IMG/VR virus record: IMGVR_UViG_3300032289_000750
Coordinates: 1-28,915 of that record
Source: a virus
Taxonomy: Duplodnaviria; Caudoviricetes
Reading direction: 5' to 3' (one strand)
DNA: 28,915 nt
Shown in pieces: positions 2,908 to 18,291 of the stretch (positions are counted from its first letter, which is position 1; the number at the start of each line of letters is the position of its first letter). Made by a program: the position numbers and the translations under genes. The notes below the pieces were generated by a model that was not told the origin of the DNA, did no database searches, and saw only the letters and a program-made list of their open reading frames with translations.

Positions 2908-2938
2908 AGCCCCTCGCTTTTTAGCGGGGGGCTTTTTT
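2908..2938 (+). terminator. Rho-independent terminator ending the late/lysis operon
   Basis: AGCCCCTCGCT-loop-AGCGGGGGGCT stem followed by a T run. Confidence 0.85.
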
Positions 2939-3283
2939 GCTTTCCCAATCTTTATTTTGTTGTGTCTTTAAGCGATGGCAGTTGGCACATAGTGTCTGGA
3001 GGTTATCTGGTTCATTGTTTAAATGGTTGCCATCTATGTGGTCAACATCTAATTGACTGCGGTGTTCTGCAACAAAGCCACACAATTCACAGTAATCTTT
3101 TTTATTTTTAAATTGACTAGAACGATACAAGTTATATTTATTTCTACAAGACCACCCATATTGTTTCTTCTTTAATCTTGCGGGTCCACATACTGCACAG
3201 ATACCCCATCGTTTGGTTGGGTTCTTGAGCAGCAATCTATGCTGCTTAGGCTTATCCGCCTGTGGAGTAGAACCCTGAGGCAT
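2921..3283 (-). CDS. HNH endonuclease
   Basis: CxxC...LDVDHIDGNHLNN...LQTLCANCH motif; true start uncertain because it overlaps the upstream gene. Confidence 0.9.
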   Translation of the reverse strand: MPQGSTPQADKPKQHRLLLKNPTKRWGICAVCGPARLKKKQYGWSCRNKYNLYRSSQFKNKKDYCELCGFVAEHRSQLDVDHIDGNHLNNEPDNLQTLCANCHRLKTQQNKDWESKKAPR

Positions 3284-8429: not shown

Positions 8430-8816
8430 ATGACTGACCTCTCATCATTTGACCTTGACTTTCGCCATGGACAGGCTGGTGAGAAATTAGTAGAGGATTT
8501 ACTTACCGAAGGTAAGACTATAGAAGTAAAGCGTGACCGTAAATGGTGGTCAACTGGCAATGTATACATAGAAATATCGTGTTGGTATCAGCGTTCACAA
8601 TCATGGGAACCATCAGGATTGTATGTAACTGAGGCTGAATACTGGGCGTTTGTATTAGAGAAAGGTGTCCTTATGTTACCCACATCTCATGTACACTATG
8701 CGATAGAGCACTTCGGTAGAGAGATAACCTGTGAGATACCCCCAAACAGAAGCAAAGGCTACCTAATCACAGTTGATAATCTACTAGAAGCAATGAGGAA
8801 AATGCGAGATGAGTAA
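8430..8816 (+). CDS. PD-(D/E)XK-family nuclease-like protein
   Basis: GE...IEVKRD...TGNVYIE pattern. Confidence 0.6.
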   Translation: MTDLSSFDLDFRHGQAGEKLVEDLLTEGKTIEVKRDRKWWSTGNVYIEISCWYQRSQSWEPSGLYVTEAEYWAFVLEKGVLMLPTSHVHYAIEHFGREITCEIPPNRSKGYLITVDNLLEAMRKMRDE

Positions 8817-10482: not shown

Positions 10483-10824
10483 TCATGAGTTGTGTTGAGG
10501 GTCAGAGGCAATGATGTTGAGTCTCTTGCGTATACCAAACCTTTCAAAGGGTGTCGTACCCCCCCATATCCCATACCTTTCCATCACTATGCCCCACTCA
10601 AGGCAGGCTTCCATGACTGGGCACTCAACACAGATACGCTTGAGTAACTCGGCTTCGCCAGCCTCAAACTTATCCTGTGCTGGGTAGAAGAAGTCTGTCT
10701 CTATACCTGAGCATGATGCACCTTTGAATTGGTTACTGTCATAGCGTAACTCAATGGCGGTGTAACCCTCACCCCTTGAGCGTGCTGGTTTCTTGCTTAA
10801 GACACGAAAGAACTTAATCTCCAT
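10483..10824 (-). CDS. whiB: WhiB-family Fe-S transcription factor (start moved to ATG 10824)
   Basis: C...FFYP...CxxCPV...CL...GIWGG four-Cys WhiB signature. Confidence 0.93.
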   Translation of the reverse strand: MEIKFFRVLSKKPARSRGEGYTAIELRYDSNQFKGASCSGIETDFFYPAQDKFEAGEAELLKRICVECPVMEACLEWGIVMERYGIWGGTTPFERFGIRKRLNIIASDPQHNS

Positions 10825-10825
10825 A

Positions 10826-11269
10826 TCAGTACCAGTTTTTTGCCAAATGATGAGCGTATGCTCGGCATATACCACCTGTCTTTCCATATTTTCTTTCAAT
10901 ATAAGCAAGCCCTGCATCAACTTGTCTATATCCATTAAGTGTTGGTTTTATATTTATATTTACCCAAGTATCAGGCATGAGTTGTGCTATACCTAACGCA
11001 CCGCTTGATTTATTTAACGCTTTTGGTCGCCAGTTGCTCTCTTGTATCCACAATTCATAGAGGCATGAGTATTGTTCAAGTTGATTTCTTTCTATTAGTT
11101 TATCCACAGCGTAGCGTTGGTAATCGTTCTGATAATACGCAACCACCTTGCCATGTGGTGGCTCAATGAATACTGGTGGTGTCTTAAGAACTAAGATGAG
11201 TCCTAATACTATGGATGTTGCAATCCACAATCGTGCGTGTGGGTGTATCTGTCTTAAGTCATTGAGCAT
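10826..11269 (-). CDS. Membrane-anchored lytic transglycosylase (SLT-like)
   Basis: N-terminal TM segment; ESNW...A.N..SGA.GI.Q...YI..KYG motif; start could be 11269 or 11299. Confidence 0.8.
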   Translation of the reverse strand: MLNDLRQIHPHARLWIATSIVLGLILVLKTPPVFIEPPHGKVVAYYQNDYQRYAVDKLIERNQLEQYSCLYELWIQESNWRPKALNKSSGALGIAQLMPDTWVNINIKPTLNGYRQVDAGLAYIERKYGKTGGICRAYAHHLAKNWY

Positions 11270-11438
11270 CTTGTTCCAACTTTCTTTCGGCTTCGGCATG
11301 TAAGTAAGAATCTATCGCTCTTTCTTCTATCTCTCTTTGTTTATCAACACAGAAGTCACACTTCTCGTACATATAGTTCATTGTTCTTGGGTTAGTTACA
11401 ACTGTGCCACACCCTAAACATTGCATAAGAATAGTCAT
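11259..11438 (-). CDS. 59-aa CxxC-CxxC protein (not in track)
   Basis: MTILMQCLGCG...EKCDFC...; RBS AAGGAG; ATGA overlap. Confidence 0.7.
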   Translation of the reverse strand: MTILMQCLGCGTVVTNPRTMNYMYEKCDFCVDKQREIEERAIDSYLHAEAERKLEQDAQ

Positions 11439-11716
11439 GGCATCTCCTTCTTAGTGTGTGCTTCAAGTGAGTCAAGGAAATATCCAACGGACATCTCTCC
11501 ATCTTCATCTATCTTATCAGCCCACCATGGCGCACTAATCCACCTACCTTCAAGGTCAAGCCATTGAATATCAAAGCCATCGTGGTCATCCCAATGCAGG
11601 ATAACTCGTATCTCTTGACCATCAAAGGTTAGGTTCATGTCCTTGTCGTATGCAGTTTCTGTCTTAAGTAATGCTCCGACCTGTATACCTTTTAGTTCTA
11701 CTTCATGTATTGCCAT
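11435..11716 (-). CDS. Acidic hypothetical early protein
   Basis: ORF in track; start moved to ATG 11716 after GGGAG. Confidence 0.7.
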   Translation of the reverse strand: MAIHEVELKGIQVGALLKTETAYDKDMNLTFDGQEIRVILHWDDHDGFDIQWLDLEGRWISAPWWADKIDEDGEMSVGYFLDSLEAHTKKEMP

Positions 11717-11717
11717 G

Positions 11718-11855
11718 TTACATCTCTCCCATCTCATCGTGCAATCTGTCGGGGTCAGGCTCTCCGCACCCGCAGTCTATCTTCTCGCATGTGTCACACT
11801 CTTGGTTAATACCAAGGGCGTAGTCGTCACCCTCTAGGTAGCGTGGCTCACTCAT
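11718..11855 (-). CDS. 45-aa acidic Cys-rich peptide (not in track)
   Basis: MSEPRYLEGDD...CDTC...CGC; RBS ACAGGAG. Confidence 0.7.
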   Translation of the reverse strand: MSEPRYLEGDDYALGINQECDTCEKIDCGCGEPDPDRLHDEMGEM

Positions 11856-12001
11856 TTGTTTTCTCCTGTCTTAAGTAATGATGTGTAATGTTCATACAAT
11901 GCATGCCAGTAATCGAAGTCCTCATTGTTGATAGTGGCGTTGCGTTGTTCTTTTGCACGCTTGATGCGTTGTTGTATTACCTTGCGTTCGGCTGAGTTCA
12001 T
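11852..12001 (-). CDS. 49-aa hypothetical protein (not in track)
   Basis: MNSAERK...LLKTGENK; ATGA overlaps at both ends. Confidence 0.7.
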   Translation of the reverse strand: MNSAERKVIQQRIKRAKEQRNATINNEDFDYWHALYEHYTSLLKTGENK

Positions 12002-12144
12002 ACCTTAACCTCACTGGTTTGGCATAGAACTACATGGCTGTGCTTGCATGTGCATTGAGGTGCACGATTCTTTTTTCTGCGTGTGGTCACCTCCATTGAA
12101 GCATCGCATGAGGTGCAGATATACCAGTAACTTGTCCAAGTCAT
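11998..12144 (-). CDS. 48-aa zinc-ribbon-like protein (not in track)
   Basis: MTWTSYWYICTSC...QCTC; ATGA overlaps at both ends. Confidence 0.65.
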   Translation of the reverse strand: MTWTSYWYICTSCDASMEVTTRRKKNRAPQCTCKHSHVVLCQTSEVKV

Positions 12145-12434
12145 GATGCATCTTCTGTCTTAAGCACTGATAGCAATGCTTCAAGGTGGTCAAGCGCTTG
12201 TTGCTTACGCTTGTAGTTAGTGCCCAGCATTTCGTTAGCCTTCTTAAGTGTGCTCCCATGACGGGTCATCTTCATACCTGTCTTAAGTTCTAACTTAATC
12301 CAGCCAATGAGTGAGATGAGGACATATAAATCCACACCTGACCCATGTGCGCTAGTCATGTGTCCATCTTCGTTGAACTCCATGTTGTTGTGCCCGTTGG
12401 TTAGTGCTTCAAGTGTGTGTTCGGGTAGTGCCAT
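12141..12434 (-). CDS. Hypothetical early protein (start moved to ATG 12434)
   Basis: RBS GACAGGAG before ATG 12434. Confidence 0.75.
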   Translation of the reverse strand: MALPEHTLEALTNGHNNMEFNEDGHMTSAHGSGVDLYVLISLIGWIKLELKTGMKMTRHGSTLKKANEMLGTNYKRKQQALDHLEALLSVLKTEDAS

Positions 12435-12464
12435 TTGTTTTCTCCTGTCTAGTTGGTAGTGATT

Positions 12465-12520
12465 ACTTTGCCATCCGTTGGCATAGTAAGTCAAGCATTT
12501 GCGATGTGATGTTAGTCACC
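12465..12520 (-). promoter_or_regulatory. Early promoter P5 with CRP-type box
   Basis: TGTGA-TGTTAG-TCACC at 12505-12520; -35 TTGACT at 12489-12494; -10-like CAAAGT 18 bp downstream. Confidence 0.75.
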
Positions 12521-12745
12521 TGTCTTAAGTAATAAGTTCCATTTGTCTAGTGTTTGACTTAACTGTTCGCTAAGTTCTTGTTCTTGACCTACGAAGTTGC
12601 CATCTCCTGCATATCCATAGACCCAGCCCTCGTTGTCGTCATAGATTGTGCCATTAGGAAAGGCTGATTCCTCTCCATCTACATCTACACTCCAACTATT
12701 AGTTTCTTCATCGAACATAACTACATAGTGGTATGTCTTACTCAT
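12512..12745 (-). CDS. Acidic hypothetical early protein
   Basis: 77-aa ORF; RBS ACAGGAG. Confidence 0.75.
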   Translation of the reverse strand: MSKTYHYVVMFDEETNSWSVDVDGEESAFPNGTIYDDNEGWVYGYAGDGNFVGQEQELSEQLSQTLDKWNLLLKTGD

Positions 12746-12957
12746 TTGTTTTCTCCTGTCTTAAGACGACCTGCTTGTTCACATGTTGGGCATCCATCGG
12801 TTGGCGATACACCACAGAAAGGGCAGGTGTTTAGTTGTTGATTAAGTTTTGCTTTGATGCTGTCGGTGAGTGTGTTATCCCACATCCCGCCGTTGTCGTT
12901 GATTGTTTTATTGACTGAGTAAAGTACCCACTCAATCTCTTGTGCTGTTAGTTCCAT
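12742..12957 (-). CDS. Hypothetical early protein with CxxC-CxxC
   Basis: 71-aa ORF; RBS AGGAGG. Confidence 0.75.
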   Translation of the reverse strand: MELTAQEIEWVLYSVNKTINDNGGMWDNTLTDSIKAKLNQQLNTCPFCGVSPTDGCPTCEQAGRLKTGENK

Positions 12958-12958
12958 G

Positions 12959-13165
12959 TCACGCCTCCTGTCTTAAGTCAGACTGTTCTAGTACCTCGGT
13001 AAAATCGCTGTAATACCCTGAGGCTATGTCGTTTCTAATCCACTTCTCGGCTGTCATGCTCCATCTTGAAACATCACAATGAGAGGCGTGTCCGTTCTTT
13101 GTAATCGTATAAATAGTTCCACTTGTGGTGATGGTGTCACCCTTTGCGTTAATCCATGTTGCCAT
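12959..13165 (-). CDS. Hypothetical early protein
   Basis: 68-aa ORF; RBS GACAGGAG. Confidence 0.75.
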   Translation of the reverse strand: MATWINAKGDTITTSGTIYTITKNGHASHCDVSRWSMTAEKWIRNDIASGYYSDFTEVLEQSDLRQEA

Positions 13166-13193
13166 GTTCTTTCTCCTGTCTAGTTGGTAGTTA

Positions 13194-13249
13194 TATCTAA
13201 TAGGTTGGTTGGTAAATAGTCAAAGATATTTGATGTGATGTTGGTCACT
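13194..13249 (-). promoter_or_regulatory. Early promoter P4 with CRP-type box
   Basis: TGTGA-TGTTGG-TCACT at 13234-13249; -35 TTGACT at 13218-13223. Confidence 0.75.
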
Positions 13250-13400
13250 TCAATCCATCCTTGTTGCATGTCCACATATCACCCCAGCAGTAGCCGTCAC
13301 CGACCCACCAAATCTGACTTAAGACATATTGGAATCCGATTATGGCTATGATTGCGGGAATAATTACTAGAACTATCCAGCCTCGGCGTGTTAGTTTCAT
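13245..13400 (-). CDS. 51-aa single-pass membrane protein (not in track)
   Basis: MKLTRRG, a TM helix, then IWWVGDGYCWGDMWTC; RBS AAGGAG. Confidence 0.75.
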   Translation of the reverse strand: MKLTRRGWIVLVIIPAIIAIIGFQYVLSQIWWVGDGYCWGDMWTCNKDGLK

Positions 13401-13585
13401 CGTTTGTACTCCTTAGCGTGTGAGCAGGTTGATAGGGGGATAAGGCAGTCTCCGCAGATTGTCACCTGAATCCTTGCGTGAAACTCCGATAACTTTTCCG
13501 TTACATAATGTTTGCATGTTGCATCGTGTTGGTCATAAACATACGCATCACACACAACACAGTTATTGTTTGTGTCGTAAGTCAT
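13397..13585 (-). CDS. Cys/His-rich hypothetical early protein
   Basis: 62-aa ORF with two CxxC motifs; ATGA overlaps. Confidence 0.7.
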   Translation of the reverse strand: MTYDTNNNCVVCDAYVYDQHDATCKHYVTEKLSEFHARIQVTICGDCLIPLSTCSHAKEYKR

Positions 13586-14103
13586 GATGCCACCGCTGTA
13601 AGTTCTGTCTTAATAACTGAAAGGGCTTTAGTCAAGGTCAATAGCGTGTTGAGTTCTAGCGTTTCAATGCGGTCACCTCGGTAGATGTGCTCGCCCGTGA
13701 CTCGCTCAATCTCCTGACATAGCGCCTTGATTGCAGGTTCTATCTGTTCTTTTTGCATCTTGCGTGCCATGTGTCGGGCGTAGCGGTTGGCTGGGTCATC
13801 ATAACCTAAGCGCTGTCGGCGGTCATCGGTAAGAATCTTAACCGCTTCAATGAAAGGGCAACGCAGGTGGTTAAGTGGTACCCAAACTTGCTTGCCACTT
13901 GCTTTCTGTATTAAGACATTACGGGTGTTGTAAACCTTGTCGGATTGTGTCTTAAGTTGTGTCTCTATAACTATTACTTTATTACCGCTTAAAGATTCGG
14001 CGGTCTTGGCATAAGATTCGCTGATTCCATAATGGTAACCTTGCCAGTCGGTCACCTTGTTCATGTAATAAGCCTTACCGATGATTAGTTCTGCTCTTTT
14101 CAT
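13582..14103 (-). CDS. Hypothetical early protein
   Basis: 173-aa ORF; RBS ACAGGAG. Confidence 0.8.
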   Translation of the reverse strand: MKRAELIIGKAYYMNKVTDWQGYHYGISESYAKTAESLSGNKVIVIETQLKTQSDKVYNTRNVLIQKASGKQVWVPLNHLRCPFIEAVKILTDDRRQRLGYDDPANRYARHMARKMQKEQIEPAIKALCQEIERVTGEHIYRGDRIETLELNTLLTLTKALSVIKTELTAVAS

Positions 14104-14153
14104 AGTGCGTTTCTCCTGTTCTTGTAGGTAACGGGATTGTTACCAGTGCCCTA

Positions 14154-14210
14154 ATGGTGCCTTGCTCACCTCGTGCTCGTCAAGCATTTAGGGCTGTGAT
14201 GTTAGTCACA
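14154..14210 (-). promoter_or_regulatory. Early promoter P3 with CRP-type box
   Basis: Perfect TGTGA-TGTTAG-TCACA at 14195-14210; -35 TTGACG at 14178-14183; -10-like CACCAT. Confidence 0.75.
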
Positions 14211-14224
14211 TGTTTAGTTCTGTA

Positions 14225-14359
14225 TTAAGACACACTCACAATTCTTACTGATTGTTTGAGAGTCTCGGCTAGTTTGCGAAACTCTGCAAAATCTTCTGCG
14301 CTTAGTGTGTTCTTAGATTCAAAACCGCTTCCGCTGTAAAGGTTGAAAGTAATCTTCAT
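14225..14359 (-). CDS. 44-aa hypothetical protein (not in track)
   Basis: MKITFNLYSGSGFESK...; RBS GGAGGTG; ATGA overlap. Confidence 0.7.
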   Translation of the reverse strand: MKITFNLYSGSGFESKNTLSAEDFAEFRKLAETLKQSVRIVSVS

Positions 14360-14535
14360 GGTGTCACCTCCTCTGTCTTAAGTCCGACCTTGGCAATTCC
14401 AATCCATTTTAGAGCGATGCGGTAGGCATCCTCCGACCCTTGGCAGTTGTTAATCTCTGCTTCAAACTCTGTGGCTTCCATACCTGCTCGGCGTAGTGCC
14501 TTGTAAGCATCTGCCATTGCGTATCTTGCATCCAT
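14356..14535 (-). CDS. 59-aa hypothetical protein (not in track)
   Basis: MDARYAMADAYKALRRAG...GLKTEEVTP; RBS GAGGTG. Confidence 0.7.
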   Translation of the reverse strand: MDARYAMADAYKALRRAGMEATEFEAEINNCQGSEDAYRIALKWIGIAKVGLKTEEVTP

Positions 14536-14904
14536 TTATGCCACCTCATTTTCTGTCTTAAGACTTAAGAAAGTTCTTCCTGTTGAATAAGCCCAGCCTT
14601 CGCCTGCTTCGTATAGATAGAAGTACTCCTCACCTGAGTTGAAATTCTCCAGCCAATCGCTCACATTTTTAAAGGTGCGGGCGCTGTCGCTTGGTGTGCC
14701 ATAAGCGGTCTTGGCTGTCTCCTCCATCGTTTCTTGAAGTGATGAGATTCCTCCTAGGTTGATGAGTTCTGCCACCTGTTGCGGTGTGTTGTAAGACTGA
14801 ACGAGTCCAGCCCCTACCCCTTCGGGGTATCCATCCCAATGACAATAAATGGCTGTCACTTTTCCATCTGATGTCTTAAGTCCGATTGTGCTTCTTGTTC
14901 CCAT
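14536..14904 (-). CDS. Conserved phage hypothetical protein, IYCHWDGYP type (start moved to ATG 14904)
   Basis: MGTRSTIG...IYCHWDGYP...EEYFYLY; RBS ACAGGAG. Confidence 0.8.
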   Translation of the reverse strand: MGTRSTIGLKTSDGKVTAIYCHWDGYPEGVGAGLVQSYNTPQQVAELINLGGISSLQETMEETAKTAYGTPSDSARTFKNVSDWLENFNSGEEYFYLYEAGEGWAYSTGRTFLSLKTENEVA

Positions 14905-14966
14905 ATTTTTTTCTCCTGTCTTAATACACAAGGGGCGCTTTACCTCTTGCGGTCTTGCTTGGTGTA

Positions 14967-15022
14967 AGTGAATCACCTCCCGCCGTATGGTGTCTACCAT
15001 TTGGCGTGTGATGTCTGTCACA
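14967..15022 (-). promoter_or_regulatory. Early promoter P2 with CRP-type box
   Basis: Perfect TGTGA-TGTCTG-TCACA at 15007-15022; -35-like TAGACA at 14991-14996. Confidence 0.7.
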
Positions 15023-15112
15023 CCTAACCCTAAACTTTAGGTTTAGAGTTCGTGCCCCCGTTGGATTTTGAATCCGTACCCTTTCGGCGGGGGCTGTCTT
15101 ATGTCTTAAGTC

Positions 15113-15751
15113 TTAAGCCTCCTTGTAGATTTCTTCACATTGGTTGCATGTCACACCGATTTCTAAGACTGTTCGGCTTAGGCGGATGGTGTTCTCACAA
15201 TCGCATTGTGCTTTGATTAGGTTAGTGTTTCTGCCCTTAGGCTTGGCAGATTCTCCGCCAAGGGCGGTTAGGTCGTAGGCTGTCGCAACTATCTTGAGCG
15301 CCTTAGCCCATCGCTTGGCACCAAAATCGGTGAGTGAGGTGCTTGAGTAACCTTTCTTGGTTTTTTCTGTCTTAAGACCTAGCGCCTCGGCTTGTGTCTT
15401 GAATTTGGCATTGTGATACTGATTTGAGGAACAATCCTCAATCCCATTTTTATGATTCAAAGAGTGTGCCACCTCGTGCAACAATGTTGAGAATAAATCT
15501 TGAGCGCTTGAGAAAGTCTCAAGATTGAAAGCAATCTCGTTGAAAGATTCTCCGCCATTTTGCCAAGGGGTGAAAGGGGTGAAATGTCCTCGGCGACCCT
15601 TAAGGTCACGGGTTACCAAAAGAGTTGCACGGGGTGCACCTGTCTCGGTCTTGATGATTTCATGTGCTTGTTCTAGTGCACGGGTCAAGGTTGAAAGTGC
15701 CTCCGCCTTGGTTGATGCCTTGGCTGTCTTTGCTTGTGTTGCTTGTGTCAT
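15113..15751 (-). CDS. SprT-like zinc metallopeptidase, first early gene
   Basis: LLHEVAH (HExxH), a downstream YHNxxF, and a C-terminal CxC...CxxC ribbon. Confidence 0.8.
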   Translation of the reverse strand: MTQATQAKTAKASTKAEALSTLTRALEQAHEIIKTETGAPRATLLVTRDLKGRRGHFTPFTPWQNGGESFNEIAFNLETFSSAQDLFSTLLHEVAHSLNHKNGIEDCSSNQYHNAKFKTQAEALGLKTEKTKKGYSSTSLTDFGAKRWAKALKIVATAYDLTALGGESAKPKGRNTNLIKAQCDCENTIRLSRTVLEIGVTCNQCEEIYKEA

Positions 15752-15791
15752 TTTTTTCTCCTGTCTTATCGCCGTTGTTGGCTTAAGTCAG

Positions 15792-15883
15792 AAGATACAC
15801 GAGCCCCCCGCCAATACCTACGATTTTTGATGTGATGCCTGTCACATTGCCGATGTTGAGCGTGGGATGTGATGCGTTTCACA
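15792..15883 (-). promoter_or_regulatory. First early promoter P1 with two tandem CRP-type boxes
   Basis: Perfect TGTGA-N6-TCACA at 15831-15846 and 15868-15883; -35-like TAGGTA at 15815-15820; -10 TATCTT at 15792-15797 with 17-bp spacer. Confidence 0.75.
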
Positions 15884-16428: not shown

Positions 16429-18291
16429 ATGGAAAGAAAAAGAACTACTGCTGCATCCCATAAGTCGGATGCCATAAAGAAGCAGATTATTGAATTTTTA
16501 ATGGAAGGCTACTCCACACAAAAGGCTATGGATGCCGTGGGGCGCTCTATCAAAACTTATGAGTACTACCGAAAGACGGACCCCTCCTTCTCACTCCAGG
16601 TAGACAAGGTGCGGTCTATGACCGCCCGTGGCGAGATAGGTCAGTCAACCACCGAACTGCCTCCGTTCCCAGAATTTTCATCTAAGTACCTAGGGGTAGA
16701 AGTCTTTACCCATCAAAAGCACTGGATTGATTTATTGGAGGGTACCACCCCCTCCGAAGTACACCCAAGTATTATTTATGAACCTGGCGACCCTGATTTA
16801 ATTATTATCAATACACCGCCTGAGCATGCTAAATCTACGACTATTACAGTCAACTATGCTCTATACCAGATTTGCCGTAACCCTAACATCCGTATCTTGG
16901 TTGTATCCAAGACACAGGCTATGGCGCAAAAGTTCCTGCTCTCCATTAAGAACAGACTCACCCATCCTCGTTATCAGGACTTACACCTCGCCTTTGGACC
17001 TCCAGGCGGATTTGAAAAGAACTCTGATTCGTGGAAGCAGGACTTAATTTATCTATCATCCGAGGCTCGTAACTCTGGTGAAAAAGACCCAACAGTTCAG
17101 GCTATTGGTATTCGTGGTCATATCTACGGTGCCCGTGCTGACCTGATTATCATGGATGACTGTGTTGACCATACCAACGCCCATGAATACGAAAAGCAGA
17201 TTGATTGGATTCAGTCTGAGGTTATGTCTCGTATTGACAATGACGGGGGTAAGTTACTTGTCGTAGGCACTCGCCTTCGCCCAAAGGACTTGTACTCTGA
17301 ATTGCGTGACCCTATGCGTTACCCAGATGAGACATCCCCCTGGACTTATTTTGCACAACCTGCGGTATTAGAATTTAGTGATGACCATAAAGACTGGAAA
17401 ACTCTCTGGGCTAAAACAAACATGCCACCTGTATCAGGTAAAGGCGTGCCAGATAAAAACGGACTTTATGTTAAATGGGATGGCGAAGCGCTCTTTAAAA
17501 AGCGTAGTCGTATGTCACCCAATCTCTGGGCAATGGTTTACCAACAGCAACAGGTACATGAAGATGCAGTATTCCCAGGTGACTCCGTTAAAGGCGTTAT
17601 CAATGGAGCACGAAATATCGGCATCATCCCAAAGAACAAAGCAGGTAACCGACCAGAAGGTATGGATGGACTTGTAGTTGTTGCAGGGCTTGACCCAGCA
17701 ATGGCTGGATATACCGCATGTGTTTGTTTGGCTATTGACATTAACAATCAAAAGCGTTACCTACTTGATGTGTCCAATGTGCAGGGCATGAAGCCCGATG
17801 CAATCCGTGAAGTAATTAAGGATTGGACCGACAAGTACGGGATTTCTGAGTGGCGTGTTGAGAAAAATGCATTTCAAGCAATGTTAACTCAGGACCGAGA
17901 GGTTCGGGAATACCTCACAGCAAGGGGTGCCACACTCAAAGAACACCATACTGGAAACAATAAATGGGATACAAACTTCGGTGTGGCATCTCTTACTTCA
18001 TTATTCCATGGGCATGAGGATGGTACGAACCTTATTGAGTTTCCATCTACTCACATGTCCGAAGGCTTAAAGGCTTTGATAGAACAACTGGTTACTTGGT
18101 ATCCAGATGCGCCTAAGTCACAAAAGACTGACTGCGTTATGGCTTTTTGGTTTGCAGAACTTGCAGCCCGTGACCGTATTGCAAATGCTACTCACTTTGC
18201 CCGCACACATGCAGCAAAGTCCATGTTCCATACACGATATGACAAATCTCAACAGTTCACTGTTAGTTTGTCCGATTACTCATATAACTAA
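16429..18291 (+). CDS. terL: Terminase large subunit with an N-terminal HTH-like extension
   Basis: PPEHAKST Walker A variant, LIIMDD Walker B, VVGTR, nuclease GLDPA, VEKN and D.VMA motifs. Confidence 0.93.
   Translation: MERKRTTAASHKSDAIKKQIIEFLMEGYSTQKAMDAVGRSIKTYEYYRKTDPSFSLQVDKVRSMTARGEIGQSTTELPPFPEFSSKYLGVEVFTHQKHWIDLLEGTTPSEVHPSIIYEPGDPDLIIINTPPEHAKSTTITVNYALYQICRNPNIRILVVSKTQAMAQKFLLSIKNRLTHPRYQDLHLAFGPPGGFEKNSDSWKQDLIYLSSEARNSGEKDPTVQAIGIRGHIYGARADLIIMDDCVDHTNAHEYEKQIDWIQSEVMSRIDNDGGKLLVVGTRLRPKDLYSELRDPMRYPDETSPWTYFAQPAVLEFSDDHKDWKTLWAKTNMPPVSGKGVPDKNGLYVKWDGEALFKKRSRMSPNLWAMVYQQQQVHEDAVFPGDSVKGVINGARNIGIIPKNKAGNRPEGMDGLVVVAGLDPAMAGYTACVCLAIDINNQKRYLLDVSNVQGMKPDAIREVIKDWTDKYGISEWRVEKNAFQAMLTQDREVREYLTARGATLKEHHTGNNKWDTNFGVASLTSLFHGHEDGTNLIEFPSTHMSEGLKALIEQLVTWYPDAPKSQKTDCVMAFWFAELAARDRIANATHFARTHAAKSMFHTRYDKSQQFTVSLSDYSYN

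Follow-up and report, generated by a model that had tools for sequence, protein, structure and literature searches.

What reads a short word that a phage has written dozens of times into its own genes? This question is raised by the stretch of viral DNA analyzed here (IMG/VR record IMGVR_UViG_3300032289_000750), a window of 28,915 nucleotides which represents a 72% complete piece of an approximately 40-kb phage. The window encodes a terminase, a portal protein, a replication block, a sigma-like gene and a WhiB-like protein, and immediately upstream of the terminase gene a leftward operon of small early genes runs from 15751 to 10483. This operon harbors a dense array of sites with the core TTAAGACA, which is under selection at the nucleotide level, is re-spelled from class to class among relatives and co-segregates with the first gene of the operon, coding for an SprT-like zinc metalloprotease with a C-terminal four-cysteine zinc domain. 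On balance we favor the reading that the SprT-like product binds these sites, the word being read by the zinc domain, and that early transcription is shut down in this way.

The site array in the window

The array comprises 22 sites on both strands between 10797 and 15378, the core being set in a degenerate TTAA-centered inverted repeat. All 18 GTCTTAA and four TTAAGAC coordinates listed by the first-pass annotation in this interval were recovered, as were its nine positions in rightward genes and the copies reading TTAATACA. Across the window the heptamer TTAAGAC/GTCTTAA has 42 matches, corresponding to 39 distinct TTAA-centered sites, and TTAAGACA is seen 34 times as compared to 2.1 expected (Markov-2). 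Sparser sites are found in the lysis and replication genes (2794, 3470, 3516, 4413, 4912, 5167, 7370, 7710, 8423, 9905, 10138 and 10370) and a few in the portal gene and a gene for a 1929-residue virion protein (19423, 22142, 22255, 22586 and 23735). Seven near-complete relatives contain 29–45 copies of TTAAGACA per genome.

That selection acts on the nucleotides, as had been proposed, is supported by permutation of synonymous codons: the leftward early genes hold 15 sense copies of TTAAGACA against a mean of 1.8 (maximum 7 in 300), the enrichment thus surviving a codon-aware null, and against 0.23 if the codon order is shuffled. Under synonymous permutation the replication genes show five sense copies against 0.7 and the structural genes four against 1.2, the latter being marginal (maximum 4). 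Unrelated proteins do share C-terminal peptides as claimed. [FILV]KT tripeptides in early open reading frames (ORFs) are encoded by the exact word in 79 of 98 cases among eight genomes of the window's own class, denoted the TTAAGACA class, as opposed to none of ten in its sister, the GTTTAAAC class. This would be a regulatory word strong enough to reshape protein sequences, and the phages in question have relatives that infect the most abundant bacteria of fresh water.

The suggested pseudo-palindrome finds support in a profile over 1073 sites, which depicts a weaker mirror image on the left of the TTAA. The reported orientation bias is strong in the early block only, with 15 sites in sense and four in antisense direction and three full palindromes (12758, 14555 and 15369). 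Elsewhere in the window the count is 10 sense to 7 antisense, the earlier list having given sense copies only. In pooled loci, which are related and have rough gene calls, sense and antisense sites stand at 451:104 in coding sequence and at 157:23 in non-coding sequence without a ribosome-binding site (RBS). A pure coding artefact is rejected, as encodability yields 125:92 only; coding constraint covers part of the bias. What had been described as a fusion of the word to RBSs turned out to be an overlap with a pre-existing RBS, GACAGGAGA, which is older than the array because it also serves in the Planktophila phages E7 and F5, where no early array exists.

With a mean of 218 bp the spacing of the early array is more even than random (coefficient of variation (CV) 0.51, p 0.0009). 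Even spacing is also observed in five of seven other TTAAGACA-class genomes (p<0.05) and, genome-wide, in Dinoroseobacter phage R26L (CV 0.37). As a separate observation, 6-bp palindromes are depleted genome-wide to 0.25–0.63 of expectation (G001–G018, L124, L125), most strongly in the TTAAGACA-class early block (0.25).

Word classes and the first early gene

Long upstream stretches are available for 29 of 80 terminase loci; 12 of the 29 have TTAAGACA arrays and 17 have GTTTAAAC arrays, none having both. In whole genomes the arrays follow a gradient and reach their highest density within 6 kb ahead of the terminase gene. At positions homologous to the window sites 7710 and 9905 the sister class spells GTTTAAAC. 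Likewise, a site in the primase zinc finger carries the word in five of seven other TTAAGACA-class genomes and GTTTAAAC at the same position in all nine sister genomes, and re-spelling is also found in the kinase and transglycosylase genes.

This spelling goes along with the identity of the first early gene. The SprT-like gene is present in eight of eight TTAAGACA genomes and in none of nine GTTTAAAC genomes, the other first-gene type showing the reverse distribution. Counts over TTAAGACA-type, GTTTAAAC-type and E7-subfamily loci and over small ORFs refer, here and below, to loci retrieved by means of the SprT gene, which are related and not independent. From 80 TTAAGACA-type SprT loci fetched, the 69 with at least 2 kb of downstream DNA were scored, and 68 of these contain at least 1.5 TTAAGAC per kb. 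The other first-gene type is accompanied by GTTTAAAC arrays in 66 of 69 loci, and the three exceptions use a third word, GTCTAAAC. Within the E7 subfamily (about 45% terminase identity) the array is present in 28 of 32 loci with a TTAAGACA-type SprT gene, and two use TTACGACA. E7 and F5 themselves, which are cultured phages (PMC10202952), possess neither an SprT gene nor an array, 6 kb containing no site in the former and one in the latter. In contrast, L372, with 97% terminase identity to E7, possesses both, and comparison of L372 with E7 shows that in genes common to them one or two base changes have created the sites. A related pair is found in the 76.6-kb record G025 (L286–L289), which holds two phage genomes end to end and not a phage and its host; one of them carries array and SprT gene and the other does not.

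Gene trees over 17 genomes split by class for three of 27 shared genes only (WhiB, deoxynucleoside monophosphate (dNMP) kinase and resolvase), and between-class identity reaches 97% in the capsid, 94% in the portal and 96% in the tail. The few class-split genes and near-identical virion genes argue that the classes recombine and probably share hosts.

Further observations concern these relatives. Outside its early block the window has six GTTTAAAC copies against 0.8 expected, and the near-identical G001 has ten; they are likely traces of genes acquired from the sister class. In L401 (11015–19446) the spelling TTACGACA occurs in seven copies together with a diverged zinc domain. Throughout the early array of L257/L295 (1–4500) the word is now GTCTAAAC, the downstream genes mostly still carrying GTTTAAAC; this early part has little or no TTTAAA, for which avoidance of restriction could be another reason. 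In the sister-class locus L025 (6610–8604, minus strand) a cassette of amidoligase, class II glutamine amidotransferase and DUF3846 replaces the small early genes of the window.

The SprT-like protein and its zinc domain

The proposed reader of the sites is the product of the first gene of the leftward operon, located at 15113–15751 on the minus strand. No repressor had been visible to the first-pass annotation; the best candidate is this ORF, at the right edge of the interval it had noted. The protein displays the motif HEVAH at residues 92–96 and is assigned to the Pfam SprT-like family (E 1.4e-6) and to phrog_6361. His92, Glu93, His96, Cys183, Cys185 and Cys205 are invariant in 102 homologues, and Cys202 is found in at least 90% of them. 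A sequence search of the protein against solved structures gave no significant match. In its structure model (predicted local distance difference test (pLDDT) score 90) the protease part superposes on SPRTN (PDB code 6mdx, Z 9.4, root-mean-square deviation 3.1 for 102 aligned residues) and on 5xbn (Z 8.2). This match to the SPRTN/Wss1 fold covers residues 19–151 only and leaves out the zinc domain, for which whole-model structure searches returned nothing, the protease part alone being matched. Motif and modeled fold thus place the protein within the SprT-like family.

The C-terminal zinc domain (approximately residues 172–212; 15116–15238, minus strand) is modeled as strand-strand-helix and constitutes the proposed DNA-binding module. 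In the sister class the first early gene codes for a homologous protein without HExxH, and many sister-class phages retain the zinc domain alone, as a protein of 53–57 amino acids, together with the full GTTTAAAC array. Since the isolated zinc domain is accompanied by a full array, DNA binding, and not proteolysis, would be the shared function. By eye, the segment preceding the first cysteine tracks the word: KQ[TSG]TR is found with GT[TG]TAAAC, KKKTY with CTTTAAAG and GRN[TK]N with TTAAGAC. A common "SprT-like protease" of obscure role is hereby paired with a predicted and changeable DNA target, which renders its function directly testable.

Homologues in distant phages

A related word was detected in eight of 13 distant genomes with an SprT homologue. 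Of these eight, Streptomyces phage Intolerant (40 copies), Zeta1847 (22) and Maureen (17) use GTGTAAAC, while GTTTAAAC is present in Dinoroseobacter phage R26L (20), in Burkholderia phage Mica (7), in Persinger (4) and in ECO1230-10 (5). G029 contains 23 copies of CTTTAAAG. In addition to the eight, YesChef has 26 and Percival 14 copies of GTGTAAAC. The hosts of these unrelated word-bearing phages are Streptomyces, Arthrobacter, Microbacterium and Proteobacteria. Immanuel3, which grows on the same host strain as Intolerant and lacks the SprT gene, has no copy of GTGTAAAC as compared to 40.

All eight word-bearing phages have a site that coincides with, or closely precedes, the start region of the SprT gene or of its upstream neighbor, and a site is found at the equivalent position of the first gene or its predecessor in 68 of 68 GTTTAAAC-class loci. 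Inspection by eye places the site between -35- and -10-like hexamers in Zeta1847 and Intolerant, and directly after a -10-like hexamer in ECO1230-10 and Mica.

A different inverted repeat of the TGACAC type lies beside the SprT homologue of phiAsp2 (W06, 17 copies), another of the 13 distant genomes, and of the Amycolatopsis plasmid L419 (nine copies), with one copy near the homologue's gene (L419/phiAsp2). Two plasmids with SprT homologues, one with a nine-copy inverted repeat of another sequence and one with none, are not counted as support.

Leader, CRP-like boxes and RNA elements

The leader of the SprT-like gene (15750–15795, minus strand) contains a degenerate site with two mismatches (15779–15790) and a half-site that extends into the RBS. 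The leader transcript forms a hairpin hiding the RBS (z -7.7; none of 200 shuffles as stable), and its inverted repeats are kept in relatives even without the word.

Six boxes resembling the consensus of the CRP type, TGTGA-N6-TCACA, are situated upstream of promoter-like stretches on the minus strand (12505, 13234, 14195, 15007, 15831 and 15868; 12505–15883 overall), those at 12505 and 14195 adjoining array sites. In similar amounts of DNA, 215 unique CRP-like boxes were counted in TTAAGACA-class loci as opposed to 10 in GTTTAAAC-class loci, and they occur in E7 and F5 as well. In the TTAAGACA class 93 of the 215 have a site 6–19 bp upstream. A Crp is encoded in the host relative LanE-43 (Planktophila genome). 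The boxes with nearby sites and the Planktophila Crp together suggest an interference with CRP-driven early promoters, and early transcription may read the cyclic AMP state of the host. Promoter positions were judged by eye because a sigma-70 scan missed the early promoters (four found, 9.8 expected).

Following the first early gene, a three-way RNA element, closed by a GC stem and bearing a T-loop-like hairpin, is discernible at 15051–15094 on the minus strand (z -2.3). This type of element occurs in three repeats in E7, similar elements are found in the L124 early region, and it resembles a tRNA-like processing signal. The search against Rfam gave a single match (E 0.72) and none for this element.

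Placement of the phage and neighboring genes

The terminase large subunit (16429–18291, plus strand), which serves as placement marker, assigns the window to a freshwater actinophage group. It is 48% identical to that of Streptomyces Beephvirinae and 44–45% identical to those of E7 and F5; on account of this similarity the host is taken to be a freshwater actinobacterium. A terminase scan of bacterial genomes yielded two phage contigs only, in proteobacterial-named bins, and no host locus. The last gene of the leftward operon (10483–10824, minus strand) is WhiB-like and is weighed below as site reader. A conserved 128-residue protein (8430–8816, plus strand; phrog_13596) appears by eye to be a restriction-fold nuclease and is not class-specific.

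Proposed function and alternative explanations

Direct binding of the sites by the SprT-like protein is very probable, and given such binding, repression would probably be its job. According to the proposed mechanism, host polymerase, probably with the help of host CRP, would make the early mRNA. The SprT-like protein, being made first, would accumulate and close the operon behind it, acting as a putative dimer on the pseudo-palindrome both from promoter-proximal sites and through roadblocks inside early genes. The outcome would be an early-to-middle switch, and possibly also the exclusion of same-word phages or a dormant, non-integrated state.

A potential link to cultured phages is given by Arthrobacter cluster AZ and Microbacterium cluster EH, which were compared for their SprT-like protease (bioRxiv 10.1101/2025.05.26.655371; PMC8758107; PMC7302621). 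AZ phages are reported to be temperate, with homoimmune lysogens and no known repressor (PMC8758107), and the account of EH phages likewise names none (PMC7302621). The AZ preprint highlights the SprT-like protein, the truncation of which goes with clear plaques (bioRxiv 10.1101/2025.05.26.655371). In both temperate clusters the SprT homologue could be the repressor that is missing, so that a named protein and its sites are available in phages growing on laboratory hosts. More tentatively, SprT-zinc proteins could be widespread, unrecognised repressors with a DNA-activated protease, which would read a genome-wide array, silence the phage, define immunity groups by their word and, on a DNA signal, destroy themselves or host proteins bound to the DNA. 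If this were true, the missing repressor of AZ and EH would be at hand, and abundant lake phages would possess a dormancy switch that needs no integrase and is coupled to host CRP. A literature search, which covered neither subscription papers nor figures or bioRxiv supplements, where material bearing on novelty may lie, found these arrays described nowhere.

Several observations weigh against repression by the SprT-like protein. As the loci were gathered via the SprT gene and are related, their counts overstate independence. Brahms, Katzastrophic, CN1 and Attoomi, four of the 13 distant genomes, have none of these words and differ in their C-terminal segments, and in ECO1230-10 the excess of GTTTAAAC is weak (5 versus 1.0 expected). 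An exact site is present in the leader of only 22 of 69 TTAAGACA-class loci and a degenerate one in 49, and that of the window itself is degenerate. In the GTCTAAAC lineage (L257–L259) the early sites have been converted one by one, and inspection of the zinc core reveals no residue foreign to GTTTAAAC-class proteins. The truncation in Liebe spares the zinc domain and nevertheless goes with clear plaques, Liebe having three other changes (bioRxiv 10.1101/2025.05.26.655371). Integrase domains (PF00589/PF07508) were detected in none of the five complete TTAAGACA-class genomes, parAB not having been searched; consequently, classical lysogeny is not the context. Finally, most sites in the window are evenly spaced within coding sequence, and those of R26L and Intolerant are spread over the entire genome, both of which would suit a coating role as well.

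Such a role is the alternative that survives best, although we regard it as rather unlikely. The reader would be the same, but the sites would tether the protein evenly, either as a coat or as a DNA-activated protease which clears silencers, nucleases, stalled polymerase or other host proteins from the first-entering DNA. Spacing and coding positions agree with this, as do the intact HExxH of the TTAAGACA class and the precedent of SPRTN as a DNA-switched protease (PMC5128726), and the depletion of palindromes in the early block is a sign of nuclease pressure. However, full arrays persist in the sister class despite the loss of HExxH or of the entire protease domain, sites occupy promoter positions in distant phages, and a protein that is not packaged could protect only after its own synthesis.

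With respect to the binding-site reading of the first-pass annotation, its phage-protein branch stands, but a host protein binding the word, with classes differing because hosts differ, appears quite improbable. The class difference in CRP-like boxes does hint at host or regulatory differences, and the shift to GTCTAAAC has no visible cause in the phage protein. Nonetheless, the same or nearly the same word recurs in phages whose hosts include Actinobacteria as well as alpha-, beta- and gamma-Proteobacteria. Counts differ between phages of one host (40 versus 0 on one Streptomyces strain, 14 versus 0 on Microbacterium foliorum) and between E7 and L372, and the near-identical virion proteins imply common hosts for both classes.

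It is very unlikely that another phage protein reads the word, with SprT merely linked to it. The WhiB, dNMP kinase and resolvase trees do split by class, and a cysteine-rich ORF of 59 amino acids (11259–11438) shows the same 8/8 versus 0/9 distribution. WhiB is disfavored as reader, being only 56% identical within the class, with two class changes in 86 sequences and no diagnostic column. The sigma-like gene requires seven class changes (such counts cover seven of 11 genes), and E7 has both WhiB and sigma but no array. Within 6 kb, the 59-residue ORF is found in four of 16 and none of three distant array-bearing loci. The SprT gene aside, six class-linked small ORFs are lacking in many loci that bear an array; in the two distant groups they occur in at most 8 of 16 and 0 of 3 loci. 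On these class trees and distributions WhiB, sigma, resolvase, HNH and the small early ORFs were rejected as readers.

Similarly far-fetched is a function of the sites as nicking, modification or recombination marks. Nick sites exist in some podoviruses, the window contains an HNH gene (2921–3283), and a glycosyltransferase is common to the family. However, the HNH cluster is present in four of eight TTAAGACA-class and seven of nine other-class genomes, and between the classes glycosyltransferase identity reaches 96%. The modification site proposed earlier is disfavored, and host TTAA methylation was dismissed, as the account in PMC6329791 places TTAA methylation in Chloroflexi and gives no methylated motif for acI bins. 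Least likely of all is the mRNA cleavage or translation tag of the first-pass annotation, which would suit the sense bias beyond coding constraint and the RBS overlap but conflicts with the perfectly palindromic sister word, the variant word in both orientations, the 10:7 orientation outside the early block and the promoter-spacer positions in distant phages.

Comparison with known systems

The proposed reader shares with SPRTN/Wss1 (6mdx, 5xbn) the protease fold, the HExxH motif and a zinc domain that follows the protease. In its published description SPRTN is switched by DNA, cleaves itself and serves crosslink repair, and a sequence-specific site array does not figure in that account (PMC5128726).

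The analogy to stoperators drawn in the first-pass annotation is supported. Cluster A mycobacteriophages such as L5 and Bxb1 possess operator/stoperator arrays of many short sites with a 13-bp motif (PMC6550527). As in these, 20–40 short sites are present per genome, many of them off promoters, the spelling diverges jointly with a phage protein, and sites are found at this protein's own locus (PMC6550527). Stoperators are biased toward the direction of transcription; here such a bias is seen in the early block (15:4) and in pooled loci, the count elsewhere in the window being 10:7. The copy number of 20–30 for a single motif is matched by the 39 sites in 28.9 kb. In contrast to the 13-bp stoperator, the sites described here are TTAA-centered pseudo-palindromes of 8–12 bp with an 8-bp core in a degenerate inverted repeat, and they lie mostly within coding sequence, evenly spaced. 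Cluster A repressors are helix-turn-helix proteins whose binding stops elongation and confers immunity, whereas the reader proposed here is an SprT protease-zinc domain protein. No repressor of the cluster A type was found among the 48 window proteins (PHROGs, Pfam), the approximately 12 kb missing from the window not being scanned, and the five complete TTAAGACA-class genomes are devoid of integrase, cluster A phages being temperate with integration or partition genes. The array resembles stoperators but differs from them in motif type, repressor family and integration genes, and it is probably an operator array with a new kind of reader outside the helix-turn-helix proteins.

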